Assembly: GCA_963695555.1 (NCBI GenBank)
Contig: CAVOGR010000004.1
Coordinates: 85,952-149,951, forward strand
Origin: an uncultured Gemmatimonadales bacterium
Lineage (GTDB): Bacteria > Gemmatimonadota > Gemmatimonadetes > Gemmatimonadales > GWC2-71-9
Length of the DNA stretch: 64,000 bases
Direction: 5' to 3'
Shown here piece after piece: positions 16,969-31,142 of the stretch (positions are counted from its first letter, which is position 1; each line of letters begins with the position of its first letter). The notes below the pieces were generated by a model that made no database searches, was not told where the DNA came from, and saw only the letters and a list, made by a program, of their open reading frames with translations. The position numbers and the translations under genes were made by a program.

Positions 16969-17666
16969 TGCGTGTGGGGCTCTCGCCGATGGCACATCGG
17001 CAGCCAGGCATCGCCGTGGGGGCAGCGGGAACTGTGCTCATTCACCTCGGTTTCATGCTGTGGCTCTTGCTGGCCGTGACGCCGCAGGTGGAGCTGCCCC
17101 CGGTGTATGCCGTGGAGTTGGTGGCGGCTCCCAGACCCGTGCGCCAGGTACGGCCGGCGCCCGAGGCCGTCCAGCGCCCCGCCGACCAGCCGGCTCCCGT
17201 CGCGCCGACGCCGGAGCCCGCGCCGCCAAAGCCCGAGCCGACCCCGGCGGCCCCTGTCGCGACGCCCAAGGACCGGGAGCCACCGCCGCGGACCGCCGCC
17301 CCGGTGGAGCCGGTCCCGGGTGAGGCCCCGAACACCGGCGTCGACGTCGCCACGGTCAAGACCCCCGGGCTCGCGTTTCCGTATCCCGAGTATTTGCGGA
17401 ACATCGTGACCCAGGTGTATCGACGGTGGGACCGGCCGCGGAGCAAATCGGGGCTCCAAGCGGAAATCTTCTTCCTCATCTCTAGGGACGGAAGCGTGCG
17501 TGAAATGCGGTTTATCAACCAGTCCGGCAATTTCTCGTTTGACCTGGGTGCGCAGGGCGCGATCGAAGCCGCCGGCAACGCAAACGCCTTCGGCCCCCTG
17601 CCGGACGGCTTCGAGAACGACGTGTTGCCGGTTAGTTTCTTCTTCACGCCGAGGCCTGCACAATGA
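16968..17666 (+). CDS. TolA/TonB-like energy transducer (alternative start ATG 16989)
   Basis: TM helix with His (VLIHLG), Pro-rich linker, C-terminal domain SGNFSFD; lies between tolR and tolB. Confidence 0.85.
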   Translation: MRVGLSPMAHRQPGIAVGAAGTVLIHLGFMLWLLLAVTPQVELPPVYAVELVAAPRPVRQVRPAPEAVQRPADQPAPVAPTPEPAPPKPEPTPAAPVATPKDREPPPRTAAPVEPVPGEAPNTGVDVATVKTPGLAFPYPEYLRNIVTQVYRRWDRPRSKSGLQAEIFFLISRDGSVREMRFINQSGNFSFDLGAQGAIEAAGNANAFGPLPDGFENDVLPVSFFFTPRPAQ

Positions 17667-18943
17667 GGTGGCTTGGCGCGGTCGCGGCGGCCGTGCTGGT
17701 GGCGGGCACTGCGTCAGCGCAGGACTCCATTCCACCGGCGGACCAGGGCGTGCGGGTCGGTATTACCTACACTCCCGGGGTGCGCCCGCGACTCCTGGTG
17801 ATGCCGGGCACGGGCTTCGATTCGGTCCGTGCCATTCTGAAGCGCGATTTGGATTACAGCGATCGCTTCGAGATGCTCGTGCTCGAGGACAACGGCTCGG
17901 GCTCGGGGGCCGTCAACTACGGGCTCTATGCCGCGCTCGGGGCCCAATACGGCGTGGAGGTCTCGGCGGCGGGTGCGGCGATCAAGCTCCGGCTCCATGA
18001 CTTTACCCGGGCCGAGGTCATCAACGAGCAGGCCTTCGTGTTCTCGGCTTTCGATTCGCCGGCGTTCCGAATGGAGGCGCACCGTGCCGCGGACGAAGTG
18101 GTCCGGTGGGTAACCGGAACACCGGGGATCGCGGCCACGCGCCTCCTGTATGTGGGATCCGGCCGCGTGTACCGGGTTGACAGCGACGGCGCGAACATCC
18201 AGGCGTTGACGCCCGGCGAGGATCAGGCACTCTCGCCGGTCTGGGCACCAGACGGCGCCTCCTTCGCCTACACCCGGTTTGACGAGGGTCGGGGGGCAAT
18301 CCTGATCCGGAACCTCAACGGCGGCGCCCCGATCACGGTGCCATCGACCTCGACAAACCTCAATTATGCCGCGGCGTTCGCGCCGGATGGAAGAAACCTG
18401 GCATTCACCCGATCCGACGAGAGCGGTACGGACATTTTCGTGGCGAACGTCGCGGACCGGTGCTGCGTCCGGCGCTTGACCGTGGGTCGCTACGCAGATA
18501 ATCTATCACCGACATATTCGCCCGACGGCAACCGGATCGCCTTCGTCTCAACGCGCGCCGGCCCGCCGCAGATCTACGTGATGGCGGCCGAAGGGACCGA
18601 CCAGGAGCTCCTCGCCCCCTTCGACTTTGGGGTGACCGGCTCCTCCAACGGCCCCGAGTGGTCTCCCGACGGGGCGAGCGTGGCCTTTCATCGGGAAGTC
18701 GACCGGAGTTCCCAGATCTTCGTGCTCGATGTGGCCACCCGGCGTGCGCGGCAGCTCACTTCCGCCGGGCGCAATACCGACCCCACCTGGGCACCGGATG
18801 GTCGCCACCTTACATTTGTATCGGATCGGAGTGGTCAACGGCAGCTGTGGGTGATTGATACCGAAACGGGACGGGTACGGCAGCTTCATACCCCGACGTT
18901 CGCTCGCCTGCCGGCCTGGTCTCGTTGGCTGGTGCAACCGTAG
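17663..18943 (+). CDS. tolB: Tol-Pal beta-propeller protein TolB
   Basis: Signal peptide ASA|Q; DLDYSDRF; PD40 repeats (SPVWAPDG, SPTYSPDG, PEWSPDG, PTWAPDG). Confidence 0.93.
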   Translation: MRWLGAVAAAVLVAGTASAQDSIPPADQGVRVGITYTPGVRPRLLVMPGTGFDSVRAILKRDLDYSDRFEMLVLEDNGSGSGAVNYGLYAALGAQYGVEVSAAGAAIKLRLHDFTRAEVINEQAFVFSAFDSPAFRMEAHRAADEVVRWVTGTPGIAATRLLYVGSGRVYRVDSDGANIQALTPGEDQALSPVWAPDGASFAYTRFDEGRGAILIRNLNGGAPITVPSTSTNLNYAAAFAPDGRNLAFTRSDESGTDIFVANVADRCCVRRLTVGRYADNLSPTYSPDGNRIAFVSTRAGPPQIYVMAAEGTDQELLAPFDFGVTGSSNGPEWSPDGASVAFHREVDRSSQIFVLDVATRRARQLTSAGRNTDPTWAPDGRHLTFVSDRSGQRQLWVIDTETGRVRQLHTPTFARLPAWSRWLVQP

Positions 18944-18980
18944 ATGTAGTCCCTCATCCATCAAAGTTATGGAGCCCTTC

Positions 18981-19574
18981 ATGAATCGCTCATCGATACT
19001 CCTTGCCACTCTCGTGGTGGCCCTTACAGCATGCGGTGGCACGCCTGAGCCGGAACCGCCGGCCCCCGTGGTGGACAGCATGGCCATCCGAGAGCAAGCG
19101 CGGCGCGATTCGATTGAGGCCGCCCGGCTCGCCCGTGAAGCGGCGGAGCGGGCCCGGCTCGAGGCCGAGCGGCGAGCTCGGGAAGAGGCGGAACGCGCGC
19201 GTGCGGCTCTCATGGCCGACCTGAACGCCATGATCAACTTCGACTTCGATCGATCGGACATCCGGTCGGTGGACATGGCCAAGCTGGACCGGAAGGCCGC
19301 GATCCTCGCCGCCAACCCCGGAGTGCGGCTCCGCATTGCCGGCCATTGCGACGAGCGCGGTTCGGACGAGTACAATCTCGCGCTGGGCAACCGGCGGGCC
19401 TCGTCAGCCAAGCGGTACCTGGTAAACAAGGGGGTCGACGCCTCGCGCATCGAGATCGTGTCCTTTGGCGAGGAGCGCCCGCTCGACGCCGGGCACACGG
19501 AAAGCGCGTGGGAGCGGAACCGGCGGTCTGAGTTCGAGCTCACGGCCGGTGGCGCGACGCTGGTAGCGCCGTAG
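18981..19574 (+). CDS. pal: Peptidoglycan-associated lipoprotein
   Basis: Lipobox LTAC; INFDFD, GHCDERGSDEYNLALGNRRA, VSFGEERP, NRRSE. Confidence 0.95.
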   Translation: MNRSSILLATLVVALTACGGTPEPEPPAPVVDSMAIREQARRDSIEAARLAREAAERARLEAERRAREEAERARAALMADLNAMINFDFDRSDIRSVDMAKLDRKAAILAANPGVRLRIAGHCDERGSDEYNLALGNRRASSAKRYLVNKGVDASRIEIVSFGEERPLDAGHTESAWERNRRSEFELTAGGATLVAP

Positions 19575-20350
19575 TGCGTGTTCGCATCGGTGTTCTCGGA
19601 ATCCTCGCGGCCACGGCCGCTCTGGGCGGCTGTGCGCTCAAGAGCGACGTGCGCCGCGTGGAAACCGAGGTCGCACTGCTCAAGGCGGAATCCGCCCAAC
19701 GGGATTCCGCCGCCGCGACGCGATTGGTGGAGCTGATGACCCGGCAGCAGCAGATGCTCGACTCGTTGGTGGCCCACCAGCGGGCGTTGACCAGTGCCCG
19801 GGGCGAGCTGTCCGGCGAGCATTACATCATTCAACAGCTGCTGGTGCAAGTTCAGGAGTTGACCGGTCAAAGCCAACAGCGGCTGAGCGAGCTGCGGGCC
19901 CAACTGGAAAGCGAACGGGCCGCGCCCGCAGTACCGGCGGAGGGTGCGGCCGGGGTGGACGTGCCCGCGCCCACCGGTCCGTCGGCCGAGCAGATGTATC
20001 AGGTCTCGGTGGCGCAACTGAGGCGGGGCAGTCTGGGAACGGCGCGCCTCGGCTTTCGGCAGTTGATTCAGACCTATCCCCAGGACGAACGGGTTCCCGA
20101 CGCGCTCTATTTCATTGGCGAGAGCTACTCCGCGCAACCGGATTCTGCCGCGCAGTACTACACTACGGTTGTACGGGACCACCCACGCTCGCCGCGGGCG
20201 TCATCGGCCCTCTACAAGCTCGGATTGCTCGCCGAGCAGCGGCAGGACCCCGCGGAGGCGGGGGCGTTGTATCGTCGGGTGGTTGATCAGTATCCCACAT
20301 CCGATGCCGCCTCCCTCGCCCGAGATCGACTCCGCGCACTAGGTCAGTAG
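19574..20350 (+). CDS. cpoB: Tol-Pal TPR protein CpoB/YbgF
   Basis: Lipobox LGGC, coiled coil, TPRs (PDALYFIGESY, SALYKLG); directly after pal. Confidence 0.88.
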   Translation: MRVRIGVLGILAATAALGGCALKSDVRRVETEVALLKAESAQRDSAAATRLVELMTRQQQMLDSLVAHQRALTSARGELSGEHYIIQQLLVQVQELTGQSQQRLSELRAQLESERAAPAVPAEGAAGVDVPAPTGPSAEQMYQVSVAQLRRGSLGTARLGFRQLIQTYPQDERVPDALYFIGESYSAQPDSAAQYYTTVVRDHPRSPRASSALYKLGLLAEQRQDPAEAGALYRRVVDQYPTSDAASLARDRLRALGQ

Positions 20351-20377: not shown

Positions 20378-23300
20378 ATGACCAGCCCCGCAGGCGAGAT
20401 GCCCTTCCTCGACCACCTCGAGGAGCTCCGCGTCCGCATTTTCAAAGTGCTGGCGGCGGTGGTCGTTGGTGTGGTTGTGGGGTTTTGGGTGGTGCAGCGG
20501 TTCAAGGTCATCGCTATTCTGAAGCAGCCAATCGAGCCCTATCTCCCCTCGGGAAAGCTGACCGTGCTGAGCCCTACCGAGCCGATACTCATCGTGCTCA
20601 AGCTGGCGCTCGTGGTCGGTCTCGTGCTTGCCTCGCCCGTCATCATCTACCAAGTATGGGCGTTTCTCTCTCCCGCACTCTACGCTCGCGAGAAGCGGGC
20701 CCTCATTCCGGGGCTGGTGGTGGGGTTGTTCCTGTTCCTCGTCGGGGCCGCGGGCGGGTTCTTGGTGATCGTGCCGGCGGCGTTACGCATTTTGCTGAGT
20801 ATCGAGCCGGACACGTTGCAGACGATGATCACGTTCGGGTTTTACTTCAGCTTCGTCACTCAGCTGTCACTGGCCATGGGGGCGTCGTTCGAGCTTCCGC
20901 TGCTCCTCATGCTCCTCACCTGGCTTGGCGTGGTGACGCCGGCCAAACTGCGCCGCTTCCGCCGCTTTGCGCTCGTGCTCGCCGCGCTGTTGGGTGCGCT
21001 GCTCACGCCGGCAGACGTCACCTCAATGGTGATCCTCACCAGTATCCTCGTGGTGCTCTACGAGGTGGGGGTGCTCGGCTCGGTGCTCGTGGCGAAACGT
21101 CGGGCGCGCACGACTGGGGGACCAGGTGCCTTGTTGGTGGTTGGCTTGTTGCTGACCGCGGGCTCGTTGTCCGCGCAAGTGCCGACCAAACCGCCGCTGG
21201 TGCGCCCGCCCAAGACTGCGCGGACGCCCACCGATACCGTGACCGGGGCGCCCTTGCCACAGCCTGGCCAAGCCCTCGATACCGCTAGCGCCCGGCGGGT
21301 GGGGCTCCCGACCGGCCCTACCCGGCAATTCGCCCAGCCGGATTCGATGGTGCAGGCCTTGCTCGCGCGCCCCGGATTCAGGGTGACACGCTATAGCGCC
21401 GACACGGCCACCCTCTTCGCAGCTGAGCGGCGCATGCTGCTCGATGGACGAGCCCTGACCGAGCGTGAGGGCACGACCCTCGAGGCGGATCACATCCGGT
21501 ATCGGGACGCCGAGTGCCTACTCGATGCGTCCGGCGATCCTCGGCTGTTCGACGCGGGAAGCGTGTTGGTGGGGGAAGGGATCGGGTACAACACCTGTAC
21601 GCGGCGCGGCTTCGTCACGAATGCGTTGACGAGTTTTCCTGAGGGATCCACCGTGTGGTTCCTGCGGGGGAACATCGCCCAGGACTCCAGTTCGAGCCGG
21701 ATCTACGCCGCGTCGAGCGAGATCACGAGCTGTGATCTTCCGGAGCCACACTACCACTTTGCCGCGCGGGAAGTGAAGTGGATCTCGAAGAATGTTCTGG
21801 TGGCCCGTCCCGCCGTGCTTTACATCAGCGACGTCCCGGTCCTGTGGCTCCCATTCGTGTTCCAGGACACCCGGCCGGGGCGACGATCCGGCATTCTCGT
21901 TCCGCAATTCGGTCTCAACGATCTGGTCCGGACCTCCGGCGGCTACAGCCGCCAGGTGACCAACGTCGGATACTACTGGGCACCGAACGACTACATCGAC
22001 ATCACCGGGCGGCTCGACTGGTACTCCGATCGGTATCTCCAGCTGGGCCTTGCCGGCCGATATCGGTGGCTGAACCGGTTTGCCAACGGGGAGATCGCGT
22101 ACAGTAATCAGCGGGAGAGCGGCGGCGCGTCGTCGACCAGCATCCGCTGGCTCCACCAGCAATCGTTCGACCTGACCACGTCGGTGAACTTGAGCTTCAA
22201 CTACGTCAGCAACACCACCATTACGAGCAGGAACGCCATCGACCCGCTGCTCAACACCCAGCAGATCACCAGTGCGCTCAATCTGTCCAAGCGCTATCGG
22301 TGGGGGACCGTGACGCTCGGCGGCAATCGGCGGCAGAGCCTGTCCGACAACAGCACCACCACCCAGTTTCCCGCCATTACGATCTCTCCGAAGCCGTTGG
22401 ACATCGCGTCTGATATCACGTGGTCGCCGTCGTTGTCGTTCGTCCAGAATCGGGCTTCCAATACGCCAGGCGGGACCGTGTTGATTGCCCGAGCGGGCGG
22501 CGGGCTGGATTCTCTGACCCTCACCGGATCGAGTCGCACGACGTCCGTCTCGGTCGCCACACCGTTTCGGATCGGCTCATTCAATTGGCAAAACACCCTA
22601 AGCCTGAATGACCGAAAGAACGAGGGACGCATCGTCGAGACCTTCCGAGTGCCCGATCCGGGCTCGTCCAACCCGGCGGACTCACTCACAGTTAGCCGGG
22701 TGACCACGGGAGACTTCGAGACCGGAATCGATTGGACGACCGGCATCAATCTGCCCGTCCTCTTGCGGCGGACCTGGAAGTTGCAACCGGTGCTCGGGAT
22801 CGCGAACACCACCGGCGGTCCCTTCCTGTTGCGGAATCGCCGGACCGGGGGGGACTTCGTAAGTCAGGGTAAGCGCTTCGCGCTGGTGCTCAACGTGACG
22901 CCAACGTTGTTCGGTTTCCTCCCGGGGTTCGGACCGCTCTCCCGCATCCGGCACAGTATCTCTCCCATCATCTCCTACTCGTACAGCCCAAAGGCCACCA
23001 TTCCCGAGGACTACGCCCGCGCCATCACCCCGGAGGGACAAGCGCCGCGGCGGACGAGCGACGCGGCTCAGCGCCTGAGCATCGGATTGTCCCAAAATTT
23101 CGAAGGCAAGACCCGCCCGGCCCCGGGAGACACCAGCGACACGCCCGCGACTCGGAAACTCCGTCTGCTGAGCATCGCGACGAGCCCCATCGTCTACGAC
23201 TTCGAGCAGGCCAAGAAGCCTGGCCGGACGGGGTGGGTAACATCGACCCTCACCAATACGTTCCAAACCGATCTCCTGCCCAGCTTCAGTCTGAGCATGA

Positions 23301-23884
23301 CCCATGACCTGTGGCGTGGAGCGGTCGGAACAGACACGGCCAAATTCGATCCCTTCCTGCAAAACGTGAACATGAGCTTCGCGCTCTCCACCCGGACAGT
23401 TCGGTCATTTCTCGGACTGTTCGGGTTAGGCAGCGGAAGCGCAGCCCAGGAAGGCGACGAGGAGCCGCCGCCCAGCTACCTGGCTCAATCCGGCCGAGGG
23501 TTGGGCCGGACCGGAGCCTTCAACACCGATATGCCGGAAGGCGGCGCCCGGCGGCCCTTCTCGGCGAACGTCAATTTTTCGTTGTCGCGCGTCAGACCGC
23601 TTCCGGGAGCGACCTCATCGGTGGCGGATCGCCAGAACCTGGGATTCAGCACCAGCTTCTCCCCGACGCCGTTCTGGGGGGTTTCGTGGTCGACGCAATA
23701 CAACATTACCGACAAGAAGTTCGAGTCCCAGATCGTGCGCTTGGAGCGGGACCTACACGACTGGCGGGCCCGCTTCGAATTCATCCGCAACGCCAACGGC
23801 AACTTCGCCTTCTTCTTCTCGATCTACCTCACCAGCCTGCCCGATCTGAAGTTCGACTACGACCAGCGTACGATCTCGAACTGA
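20378..23884 (+). CDS. tatC-lptD: TatC (aa ~1-240) fused to an LptD-like LPS-assembly protein (aa ~267-1168) through an internal signal-peptide-like segment
   Basis: TatC: MPFLDHLEELRVRI, YQVWAFLSPALY, FELP, LTPAD, LYE. LptD-like: TSCDLPEPHYHF, VPVLWLPF, RRSGILVPQFG, GYYWAPNDY, C-terminal RDLHDW...DLKFDYDQ. No stop between the two parts. Confidence 0.85.
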   Translation: MTSPAGEMPFLDHLEELRVRIFKVLAAVVVGVVVGFWVVQRFKVIAILKQPIEPYLPSGKLTVLSPTEPILIVLKLALVVGLVLASPVIIYQVWAFLSPALYAREKRALIPGLVVGLFLFLVGAAGGFLVIVPAALRILLSIEPDTLQTMITFGFYFSFVTQLSLAMGASFELPLLLMLLTWLGVVTPAKLRRFRRFALVLAALLGALLTPADVTSMVILTSILVVLYEVGVLGSVLVAKRRARTTGGPGALLVVGLLLTAGSLSAQVPTKPPLVRPPKTARTPTDTVTGAPLPQPGQALDTASARRVGLPTGPTRQFAQPDSMVQALLARPGFRVTRYSADTATLFAAERRMLLDGRALTEREGTTLEADHIRYRDAECLLDASGDPRLFDAGSVLVGEGIGYNTCTRRGFVTNALTSFPEGSTVWFLRGNIAQDSSSSRIYAASSEITSCDLPEPHYHFAAREVKWISKNVLVARPAVLYISDVPVLWLPFVFQDTRPGRRSGILVPQFGLNDLVRTSGGYSRQVTNVGYYWAPNDYIDITGRLDWYSDRYLQLGLAGRYRWLNRFANGEIAYSNQRESGGASSTSIRWLHQQSFDLTTSVNLSFNYVSNTTITSRNAIDPLLNTQQITSALNLSKRYRWGTVTLGGNRRQSLSDNSTTTQFPAITISPKPLDIASDITWSPSLSFVQNRASNTPGGTVLIARAGGGLDSLTLTGSSRTTSVSVATPFRIGSFNWQNTLSLNDRKNEGRIVETFRVPDPGSSNPADSLTVSRVTTGDFETGIDWTTGINLPVLLRRTWKLQPVLGIANTTGGPFLLRNRRTGGDFVSQGKRFALVLNVTPTLFGFLPGFGPLSRIRHSISPIISYSYSPKATIPEDYARAITPEGQAPRRTSDAAQRLSIGLSQNFEGKTRPAPGDTSDTPATRKLRLLSIATSPIVYDFEQAKKPGRTGWVTSTLTNTFQTDLLPSFSLSMTHDLWRGAVGTDTAKFDPFLQNVNMSFALSTRTVRSFLGLFGLGSGSAAQEGDEEPPPSYLAQSGRGLGRTGAFNTDMPEGGARRPFSANVNFSLSRVRPLPGATSSVADRQNLGFSTSFSPTPFWGVSWSTQYNITDKKFESQIVRLERDLHDWRARFEFIRNANGNFAFFFSIYLTSLPDLKFDYDQRTISN

Positions 23885-24016
23885 TGTCCTCGCCAAGTGA
23901 CATCCGTTCCCCGGGCTGACTTACGCAAGTGCTTGTCCTCAAAGGATCTATGGCTCCCGCCGGTCTGGCACGCTCTCTGCCATAGGTTTGGATGGACTCC
24001 CTCCTCGGAGATACTC

Positions 24017-25150
24017 ATGCGACGCTTGTTGCTCGCCTTGCCCATACTTCTCGTGATGGCATGTTCGGGAGACGACACCGTCTTCGGTGGCGGCGGCACG
24101 GTCGCCGCTCCACAAAACCTCTTCTACGTCGTTGAGCCCAACGGCACTGGGAATTCTCCAACCGGTATCCTGCTGCGTTGGGACGACGATCCCGACCCCG
24201 ATCTGGCGGTCTGGCATGTGTATTCCCGGGGGAGCAGCTCGGGCACCTTCGGGCTCCGTGGCTCCACCACTTCCAATTCATTCCATGATCAGGGCGTGCC
24301 GCACCTCGAGTACTACGTGACCGCTGAAGATCTGGACGGATTCGAATCCGGCCCCAGCAACGTGATCACGGTCGATGAGCGTCTCACGTTGCAGGCACCC
24401 AGTTCGCTGTCCAGCACCTCGCTCAATGGCGCCATTGCCCTCACCTGGTCCGATAACGCGTTTACCTCGGATCCGGCGGGCTTCAGCCAGTACCGCGTGT
24501 ACAGCGTGGGATACGACCTCGATGCCGGATTGTGCGACCTCGACTGGGCGCTGGAAGGCACCACGGTCGCACCGGAGTTCGTGGCCGGCGCGCTCCTCAA
24601 TGGCGCCCCCCGGTGTTTCGGCGTCTCCGCTGTGAGCGTGGAGGGCTGGGAGAGCCTCTGGTCTCCGATCCGGGACGATACGCCCCGACCCGACGCCAGA
24701 AACGTGGTGGTGTGGACCAGTCAAGCTGATGTCACCCAAAGCGGATTCCGCTTCTGGCGCGACCTGAACCTCGACGGGTTGGCTCAACTGTCCGAACTTG
24801 GCCGGATAGGGGCCGGCACCGCGCCGGATATCGACTTCTCATTTGAGCGGAATCCTTCGGGCCTGGTCTTCTTCCGGCCAGTCAGGCTCGGGACCGGTGT
24901 CCTCTCGGTCGGTCAAGTCGCCGATCTGACCAGCATCGACTTCGCGCCCAATGCCGCATACGGCACGGGCCAGATCGAGGCGCTTCCAGGTAATGGATAC
25001 ATCTTCGAGATGGACGGCGGCGACGGTTTCGCCCGCTACGGTGCCATCCGCGCGACCCACGTGGGTCAGAATTTCGTGATCCTCGACTGGGCTTTCCAGA
25101 CCGACCCCGGCAACCCGGAACTCCTGGTTGGGGGTATCGGCGGCGGCTGA
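24017..25150 (+). CDS. Lipoprotein with two FN3-like repeats and an uncharacterised C-terminal domain
   Basis: GGAG RBS, lipobox VMAC; two P.NL/P.SL...L.W...VYS...V.A...G.ES units. Confidence 0.7.
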   Translation: MRRLLLALPILLVMACSGDDTVFGGGGTVAAPQNLFYVVEPNGTGNSPTGILLRWDDDPDPDLAVWHVYSRGSSSGTFGLRGSTTSNSFHDQGVPHLEYYVTAEDLDGFESGPSNVITVDERLTLQAPSSLSSTSLNGAIALTWSDNAFTSDPAGFSQYRVYSVGYDLDAGLCDLDWALEGTTVAPEFVAGALLNGAPRCFGVSAVSVEGWESLWSPIRDDTPRPDARNVVVWTSQADVTQSGFRFWRDLNLDGLAQLSELGRIGAGTAPDIDFSFERNPSGLVFFRPVRLGTGVLSVGQVADLTSIDFAPNAAYGTGQIEALPGNGYIFEMDGGDGFARYGAIRATHVGQNFVILDWAFQTDPGNPELLVGGIGGG

Positions 25151-30896: not shown

Positions 30897-31142
30897 ATGG
30901 GCATCGGGAACTTGGGATTCGGTGAAATTCTCATCATTCTGGTGGTGCTGCTCCTCGTGTTCGGGGCTCGTCGCTTGCCGGAAATCGGGGCGTCCTTGGG
31001 GAAGGGGATCCGCGAATTCAAGCGAAGCATCACGGAAACGAGCGATGCGGTGACGCGGGGCAACGATCAGGAGCCGCCGGCTCGACAAATCGATGCGCAG
31101 GCATCACCGACGGACGGTGAGCCGAAGCGCTTGTCCCAATAG
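30897..31142 (+). CDS. tatA: Twin-arginine translocase TatA
   Basis: LGFGEILIILVVLLLVFGARRLPEIGASLGKGIREFK. Confidence 0.95.
   Translation: MGIGNLGFGEILIILVVLLLVFGARRLPEIGASLGKGIREFKRSITETSDAVTRGNDQEPPARQIDAQASPTDGEPKRLSQ

Follow-up and report, generated by a model that had tools for sequence, protein, structure and literature searches.

Most genomes of one Gemmatimonadales family encode the inner-membrane export protein TatC and the lipopolysaccharide insertase LptD as one chain, and the gene described here is one such fusion. It lies at 20378..23884 (+) of the window, by which we mean the whole 64,000-nt stretch of DNA that was analysed, i.e., positions 85,952 to 149,951 of the forward strand of contig CAVOGR010000004.1 (GenBank assembly GCA_963695555.1), from an uncultured Gemmatimonadales bacterium (GTDB lineage GWC2-71-9). 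The two halves are joined by a segment which, judged by its alignment with relatives, is the old signal peptide of LptD, and this segment is most likely still the cut point between TatC and LptD. The reading that we consider probable is that one precursor is made, that the old signal peptide acts as a seventh membrane helix, and that signal peptidase I would cut after Ala266, yielding a seven-helix TatC and mature LptD. The fusion is a natural and widespread case in which one bacterial gene serves for an inner-membrane translocase subunit and an essential outer-membrane protein, and it tests the limits of Sec insertion and of signal peptidase I on an internal signal peptide behind a six-helix protein.

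Architecture and occurrence of the fused gene

The reading frame contains no internal stop in 1168 codons and ends with a TGA stop at 23882-23884; the same single frame is found in relatives. The TatC moiety, with six transmembrane (TM) helices, occupies residues 1-237 (20378..21088, +). PF00902 (TatC) matched residues 12-221 (E 4.3e-58, 197 bits against a Pfam cut-off of 25.1), the NCBIfam tatC equivalog TIGR00945 matched along its positions 2-215 of 215 (191.7 bits against a cut-off of 132.7), and the PDB profile match to 4b4a had an E value of 2e-65. In the C-terminal half, PF19838 (LptD_2) matched residues 475-670 (E 5.7e-35, 121.3 bits against a Pfam cut-off of 22.5). The classical LptD profiles PF04453 and PF03968 gave no match on the fusion protein, the LptD half of which belongs to the LptD_2 family. 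The original prediction, made from the letters and their translations, had described one uninterrupted frame of 1168 amino acids (aa) with a complete TatC followed by about 900 aa carrying LptD-type motifs, and had proposed profile searches for both domains; the searches agree with it on both halves.

An AlphaFold2 model of the full-length protein, built on 116 fused homologues, had a mean predicted local distance difference test score (pLDDT) of 77.9. It showed the six-helix TatC fold at residues 9-244, a low-confidence stretch at 247-299, a beta-jellyroll at 337-445 and a large barrel at 474-1151. The predicted periplasmic jellyroll (21386..21712, +) is defined by the model strands, by a PDB profile match to 8h1r (residues 158-331) and by Foldseek, and the predicted outer-membrane beta-barrel (21797..23830, +) by PF19838, the model and Foldseek (8h1s, 4q35, 5iv9). 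Between Gln267 and the jellyroll lies a Pro/Arg-rich stretch, residues 267-336 (21176..21385, +), delimited by model pLDDT and conserved columns, which would be the N-terminal linker of mature LptD. When the model was searched against the PDB with Foldseek, the top matches were full-length LptD chains (8h1s_C at E 7e-23, 9kn3_A, 4q35_A and 5iv9_A), with E values from 7e-23 to 1e-18 across about 900-980 aligned columns, and the N-terminal part matched the TatC structures 9e01_A, 4b4a, 4hts and 9dzz_A with TM-scores on the target of 0.76-0.82. The C-terminal part of about 900 aa is thus, in the model, a whole LptD fold with the jellyroll followed by the very large barrel, which goes beyond the LptD motifs seen at first. 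Both halves match the folds of canonical TatC (Aquifex 4B4A/4HTS, E. coli 9DZZ/9E01) and canonical LptD (4Q35, 5IV9, 8H1S). Canonical TatC, however, has six helices and a free cytoplasmic C-terminus and canonical LptD an N-terminal signal peptide, whereas here TM6 is followed by a seventh hydrophobic segment and then by LptD in the same chain.

Strong purifying selection acts on both halves, with a mean column identity of 73% and many invariant columns in the alignment of the 116 fusions, whose rows are kin, so that counts from it are not independent. The acidic residues of the TatC twin-arginine site are kept: E15 and E16 do not vary, E105 is conserved to at least 90%, and we take these to correspond to Glu15 and Glu103 of E. 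coli TatC. No second TatC and no second LptD-family gene were found in the genome, which is 87% complete, and therefore both halves must work.

The family was surveyed with query residues 150-420 in 121 sampled genomes from 78 genera. A single match crossed the junction without a stop in 100 of the 121 genomes, or in 99 of 119 when two unpublished genomes are left aside (G087, which is counted among the 100, and G018). G083 is also fused, with a loop 45 aa longer, and G137 is fused at the junction with a frameshift earlier in tatC, so that the junction is open in 102 of the 121 genomes once these two are added. Nine genomes had adjacent separate genes (G005, G098, G014, G104, G106, G054, G120, G063 and G128); this state was confirmed on DNA for G005, G014 and six others and was taken from the match table only for G098. 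Three carried lptD alone with tatC elsewhere (G011, G016 and G095), three were interrupted by contig ends (G015, G018 and G131) and four had no match (G012, G111, G129 and G133). A TAG codon flagged inside the matches of genus g17 was rejected as an interruption: in G020 (L008) it is the gene's own terminal stop, and the genomes are fused. In G137 (L044, G137:C303:4300-6100) tatC changes frame in the TM4-5 region while the junction to lptD is still fused; either the assembly is wrong here or the TatC moiety is decaying.

Public databases show the same architecture. Of 8000 sequences scored in a protein database search, 1169 reached E <= 1e-3; PF00902 and PF19838 were both present in 120 of 120 among the matches listed, and these two-domain proteins derive from NCBI, JGI, ENA and Logan assemblies. 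Among the listed proteins with a source name, nearly all are called only 'twin-arginine translocase subunit TatC' or an equivalent. This naming makes LptD invisible in annotation-based surveys of these genomes and distorts TatC length statistics.

Public sequencing runs were compared as contigs, in which uncovered stretches carry no meaning, and contigs of three independent runs bridged the junction without gaps. The X2 contig covered 20836-21700 with 10 substitutions and the X6 contig 20854-21700 with 29, both with 0 gaps, and the X3 contig covered 21065-21329 and was identical to the window; for none of the four runs aligned was an insertion or deletion reported. X2 is a metatranscriptomic library, which fits a transcript across the junction and is not proof of transcription. 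A lost stop or an indel that falsely joined two genes, in a sequencing or assembly artefact or a pseudogene, has practically no chance of being the explanation: the assembly is of the metagenome type (14 contigs) and G137 has its frameshift within tatC, but the family survey, the database proteins from several sources, the gap-free contigs and the selection on both halves reject it. The original prediction had leaned against an artefact and had asked for a stop or indel separating the two genes to be sought in reads and relatives; the runs and relatives settle the matter in its favour.

Probable origin of the junction from separate, coupled genes

In a phylum-wide sample of 131 genomes, 60 belonged to the same family, and the junction was open in 50 of them (the unpublished G203 included; 51 with G083). 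Eleven other families supplied 71 genomes, among them the unpublished and unfused G462, and here only two, G035 and G459 of family f2, had an open junction. The two genes are still neighbours in other Gemmatimonadota families, and in G435 an in-frame TAG lies between them. The start of lptD is at -1 of the tatC TGA (a GTGA or ATGA overlap) in 8 of 15 separate-gene relatives, and within 4 nt of the stop in 4 more. This stop-start arrangement is classic translational coupling. A basic cluster follows TM6 in 15 of 15 separate TatCs examined; in the separate proteins this RRR cluster is followed by an Ala/acidic tail of 15-30 aa and then by the stop. The 15 separate LptDs start with M or V, followed by a short n-region, an h-region, an A-x-A/Q site and the same Pro/Arg-rich sequence.

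The fused genes lack the TatC tail, the stop, the lptD start and the n-region, and therefore the basic cluster of TatC directly abuts the h-region. The linker aligns with the N-terminal signal peptide of the separate LptDs, with the cleavage site and the +1 Gln at the same place. The fusion thus shares with the separate coupled tatC-lptD pairs (Gemmatimonadota f2, f3 and others) the proteins, their order, the neighbourhood, the A-x-A/Q signal peptide, the Pro-rich start and the RRR cluster, and differs from them in the missing tail, stop, start and n-region and in the continuous frame. The step is seen most directly in two congeners, G106 with separate genes and G017 with the fusion: about 38 nt with the stop, the ATG and MKRAPRPLGIS are missing in G017, and the mature ends align (QERPVRPP... 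in G106 and QERVRPPP... in G017). Only this pair was clean; the other sister pairs looked at for a one-step route (G035/G031, G459/G025 and G022/G014) were too diverged at the junction.

A tree of the LptD part was built for 45 genomes (IQ-TREE quick, LG+G4, with Shimodaira-Hasegawa-like approximate likelihood ratio support, SH-aLRT; the partial rows L012 and L039 were excluded). Its rows were picked to include known exceptions, which makes the tree uninformative on rates. The fused state changes at least 9 times on it, 8 of these changes being forced by well-supported branches, which illustrates clearly how coupled genes whose stop and start overlap flip between separate and fused states. Fused and separate genomes form the sister pairs G035/G031, G459/G025 and G017/G106, both f2 fusions (G035 and G459) being sister to a separate-gene genome with 100% support, and each of the three genomes with lptD alone is sister to a fused genome. 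Such easy interconversion is expected if fused and separate genes yield the same products. Two genomes, G105 (L045, G105:C1:2127700-2129300) and G035 (C2:141617-142336), carry a second stand-alone tatC besides the fusion; the stand-alone tatC of relatives encodes about 286 aa and is not beside lptD. In G016, a congener of G105, a stand-alone tatC lies at G016:C11:3966-4691 and the detached lptD on a different contig, and in G016, G011 and G095 alike the unlinked tatC is accompanied by a detached lptD with a new 5' end.

Proposed cleavage of one precursor and the alternatives

The linker between the TatC and LptD halves, VAKRRARTTGGPGALLVVGLLLTAGSLSA followed by QVP, spans nt 21089-21178, the coordinates given in the original prediction. 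Its signal-peptide-like segment covers residues 238-266 and ends ...SLSA/Q. The basic cluster KRRAR (residues 240-244; 21095..21109, +) is TatC's own cytoplasmic juxtamembrane tail and would now also be the n-region of the internal signal peptide. The h-region and c-region follow as residues 245-266, TTGGPGALLVVGLLLTAG plus SLSA (21110..21175, +); this is the proposed seventh TM helix and was assigned by homology to the separate LptD signal peptides. The predicted signal peptidase I site, Ala266/Gln267 (21173..21178, +), rests on the conserved -3/-1/+1 residues. The mature LptD of this genome would begin at Gln267 with QVPTKPPLVRPPK, and a junction-spanning peptide across Ala266/Gln267 ends ...TAGSLSAQVPTK. 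KRRAR, an 18-aa Gly/Leu-rich stretch and SLSA/Q are the parts of a Sec signal peptide; the location is not N-terminal, for the segment starts at residue 238 behind six TM helices.

These features are conserved. R241 and R242 are at least 90% conserved in the 116 aligned fusions, residue 266 is Ala in 110 of them and residue 267 is Gln in 114. Junction statistics were drawn from 96 fused junctions, one per genome, after 2 of 98 loci (L058 and L081) could not be parsed. An [AGSCTVIL]-x-[AGSC]/Q site was present in 96 of 96; the script favoured sites before Gln, so that the +1 Gln in 96/96 is partly by construction and the result is that a site exists every time. Position -1 was Ala in 85, Gly in 10 and Ser in 1, and position -3 was Ala in 45, Leu in 38, Val in 6, Ser in 3, Gly in 3 and Thr in 1. 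The last basic residue stood 17-33 residues before the site (median 21). On this evidence the segment has the look of a signal peptide, not of an anchor.

A further conserved motif, GQxLDTAxARRxGLPTxPxR...PDS at residues 297-325 (window 21266-21352), lies between the predicted cleavage site and the jellyroll. D301, A305, R307, G309, P311, P314 and D322 are near-invariant in the 116 fusions, and the motif was modelled at pLDDT 72-83, the residues immediately N-terminal to it being disordered. It is also found in the separate LptDs of families f1 and f3, not in those of f2, and may be a partner-docking motif.

The proposed course of events is as follows. The tatC and lptD genes would have been ancestrally adjacent and translationally coupled in Gemmatimonadota, and a small deletion would have taken the tatC stop, the lptD start and the n-region of the LptD signal peptide, with the consequence that both proteins would be translated as a single 1168-aa precursor. 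The six helices of TatC would insert via the signal recognition particle (SRP), SecYEG and YidC and leave the C-terminus in the cytoplasm. In solved homologues the TatC C-terminus is cytoplasmic, and together with the arginines before the hydrophobic segment this would give that segment an N-in/C-out orientation, which is that of a signal peptide; the h-region, residues 245-262 behind KRRAR, would then insert as the seventh helix and start the translocation, driven by Sec/SecA, of the LptD part of 900 aa. The cut by signal peptidase I would fall after S-L-S-A266. TatC with its extra C-terminal helix would stay in the inner membrane, and mature LptD from Gln267 would pass by periplasmic chaperones to the beta-barrel assembly machinery (BAM) and assemble with LptE. 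Since cleavage would restore two ordinary proteins, the fusion is probably near-neutral, and the one consequence that it would force is equimolar synthesis of TatC and LptD. Such processing predicts a seven-helix TatC; to our knowledge no structure or model of the Tat system includes one. The proposal that the linker is a seventh TM segment cut by signal peptidase I, releasing TatC and LptD from one precursor, was already part of the original prediction, and it stands as the best-supported reading by virtue of the linker homology, the -3/-1/+1 site, the lack of a conserved start and the interconversion of the two states; its basis is comparative, and the cut itself we infer.

Several observations weigh against processing of a single precursor. 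All the carriers found are uncultured, metagenome-derived genomes. Leu stands at -3 in 38 of the 96 junctions, and Leu at this position is tolerated by signal peptidase while being less favourable than Ala. The full AlphaFold2 model had pLDDT values below 50 at residues 247-299 (29-46 at residues 250-300), and a model of residues 1-272 on a 14-row alignment gave a helix at 250-260 with pLDDT 54-60, so that the low-scoring h-region lends no structural support to the placement of a seventh helix. Start-capable codons are also common near the junction. In 69 of 96 junctions an ATG, GTG or TTG occurs in the stretch that opens six codons ahead of the first basic residue and closes with the last one, and could give a pre-LptD with a basic n-region, and one occurs in the last four codons before the basic cluster in 15 of 18 fused loci as compared to 8 of 15 separate tatC genes, a small difference among related loci.

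The last two counts bear on the alternative that has survived best, in which the frame is continuous but LptD is mainly made from an internal start at the end of the TM6 coding sequence. In that case the linker would do the usual work of a signal peptide at the N-terminus, and the full-length fusion would be made in small amounts or to no effect. The candidate codon GTG 21089 sits two codons before KRRAR, and an ATG beside the h-region is kept in G459, G017 and G035. The position, however, is not conserved: the congener G003 has GTC in place of GTG 21089, the codon named as a possible start in the original prediction, and in G010 the stretch between the YE motif and the mid-point of the h-region contains no ATG, GTG or TTG. 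No such codon was found from six codons before the first to the last basic residue in 27 of 96 junctions, nor from the YE motif to the h-region centre in 7 of 96. Where the canonical starts are missing LptD can come from the fusion only, unless a non-canonical start is used, and even there no second LptD gene was found. What lies ahead of lptD in separate genomes, i.e., the TatC tail and the stop/start overlap, is deleted in the fusions. The only upstream Shine-Dalgarno-like motif, GAGGTG in the conserved Y-E-V codons, ends 21 nt before 21089; the motif is uninformative here since the true start at 20378 also has no obvious Shine-Dalgarno sequence. In a genome of 65% GC, chance will often put GTG at a Val position where a TM helix ends. 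We consider internal initiation unlikely as the general route to LptD, and internal starts may contribute in some species.

There is a slim chance that the seventh helix has work to do on a TatC with a periplasmic C-terminus, e.g., at the TM5/TM6 face where TatA and TatB dock, or that an uncut fraction ties the jellyroll to the inner membrane. If a working helix or a partial tether were real, Tat export and lipopolysaccharide insertion would be made 1:1 and at the same membrane site. A related candidate, the loss of TatB with the seventh helix as its substitute, was rejected: the number of TatA_B_E genes is equal in fused and separate genomes (mostly 1, sometimes 2; 41 genomes).

A full tether is slimmer still as a prospect. 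The seventh helix would then anchor the chain for good, and LptD, still joined to TatC, would reach the outer membrane by means of the 70-aa Pro-rich linker, with the Tat and Lpt systems physically coupled. The linker at residues 267-336 is long and Pro-rich and is predicted to be disordered in its first part (pLDDT below 50 at residues 247-299), and the fusion has been retained in most of the family. But the same Pro-rich linker is common to the separate LptDs, so that it did not arise with the fusion and predates it, and the -3/-1/+1 pattern found in all 96 junctions would be needless for an anchor. The length of the h-region plus c-region (median 21 residues) fits a signal peptide. The frequent reversals to separate or unlinked genes also speak against any need for a covalent link.

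Export of the LptD part by Tat in cis is very improbable. It would take the arginine pair beside TatC as a twin-arginine motif and pass LptD to the Tat system, as happens with the last helix of dual Sec/Tat proteins; the original prediction had raised it on account of the KRR, and our results do not support it. R241 and R242 are near-invariant, a K or R occurs within the last six residues before the site in 34 of 96 junctions, and RR-x-hydrophobic-hydrophobic occurs in 25 of 96. The arginine cluster is nevertheless TatC's own tail, as the 15 of 15 separate TatCs show, and the twin arginine is missing from most separate LptD signal peptides. An S/T-R-R-x-F-L-K-like motif with a weak h-region and a folded passenger is not what is found here: the h-region is very hydrophobic, with a mean Kyte-Doolittle value of 3.0 for the best 9-residue window over the 96 junctions, and the passenger is a beta-barrel. 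To reach BAM, a barrel of the outer membrane must be unfolded when it crosses the inner membrane. Streptomyces Rieske proteins do have internal Tat signals, according to the accessible parts of two reports (PMC5449189, PMC13186574), one of which states that Tat-dependent internal helices require low hydrophobicity (PMC5449189).

Precedents and genomic neighbourhood

The closest natural precedent for processing of a single TatC-LptD precursor is reportedly the FbcH cytochrome b/c1 precursor of Bradyrhizobium japonicum, attributed to Thony-Meyer and colleagues. It is said to combine in one open reading frame a multi-spanning inner-membrane protein, an internal signal peptide and an exported protein which are split after insertion, the processing having been demonstrated by experiment. 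The TatC-LptD frame has the same layout, a multi-spanning protein with a cytoplasmic C-terminus (by the topology of solved TatC homologues), an internal signal peptide and an exported protein. FbcH reportedly joins two subunits of one complex, both at the inner membrane, whereas TatC-LptD joins unrelated machines and its passenger would go to the outer membrane, by a processing step that we infer.

Other systems are similar in part. LtaS of S. aureus is cut by SpsB, a signal peptidase of type I, behind a multi-spanning membrane domain (PMC12260438, available text), and the likeness would lie in a type I signal peptidase cut, here a predicted one, between a multi-spanning membrane domain and a large extracytoplasmic domain. 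In that text LtaS cleavage inactivates one enzyme and frees no second protein, and a gene-fusion origin does not figure in it. In E. coli, an internal TM domain with a signal peptidase site engineered behind it frees its passenger, as another report describes (PMC5449189). The Streptomyces Rieske protein Sco2149 is, as far as the accessible sections go (PMC5449189, PMC13186574), likewise multi-spanning with an internal signal-like last helix after arginines; helices of this type are there described as weakly hydrophobic and Tat-dependent and serve folded cofactor domains, whereas the helix here is Leu-rich and the passenger a beta-barrel. A literature search of titles and abstract openings returned no paper on a TatC-LptD fusion and none relevant for TatC of Gemmatimonadetes. 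The PDB entries 9e02, 9e03 and 9e07 contain TatC chains of 382 and 409 residues (Nitratifractor, Myxococcus), far longer than plain TatC, and these may be other TatC fusions.

The machinery which the proposed products would need is present. Genes for signal peptidase I, LptE, LptF/G and LpxC were all found in the genome, LptE being matched by PF04390 at E 9.7e-11; PF03968, the LptA/LptD_N-type profile, had no match in the 87%-complete genome. Right behind lptD lies an open reading frame of 417 aa (23897-25150, +) with a lipoprotein-like N-terminal stretch (...LLVMAC...) and no Pfam family. The presumed partner of the TatC moiety, a tatA gene of the TatA_B_E family at 30897..31142 (+), is the only TatA/B-type gene found in the genome; it lies about 7 kb downstream of the fusion, and the spacing is similar in fused and separate relatives. 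Immediately upstream, at 17663-20350 (+), are genes for a TolB-like PD40 propeller, an OmpA/Pal-like protein and a YbgF/CpoB-like tetratricopeptide repeat protein, and since these Tol-Pal-type genes directly precede it on the same strand, the fusion closes an envelope cluster of the Tol-Pal type.

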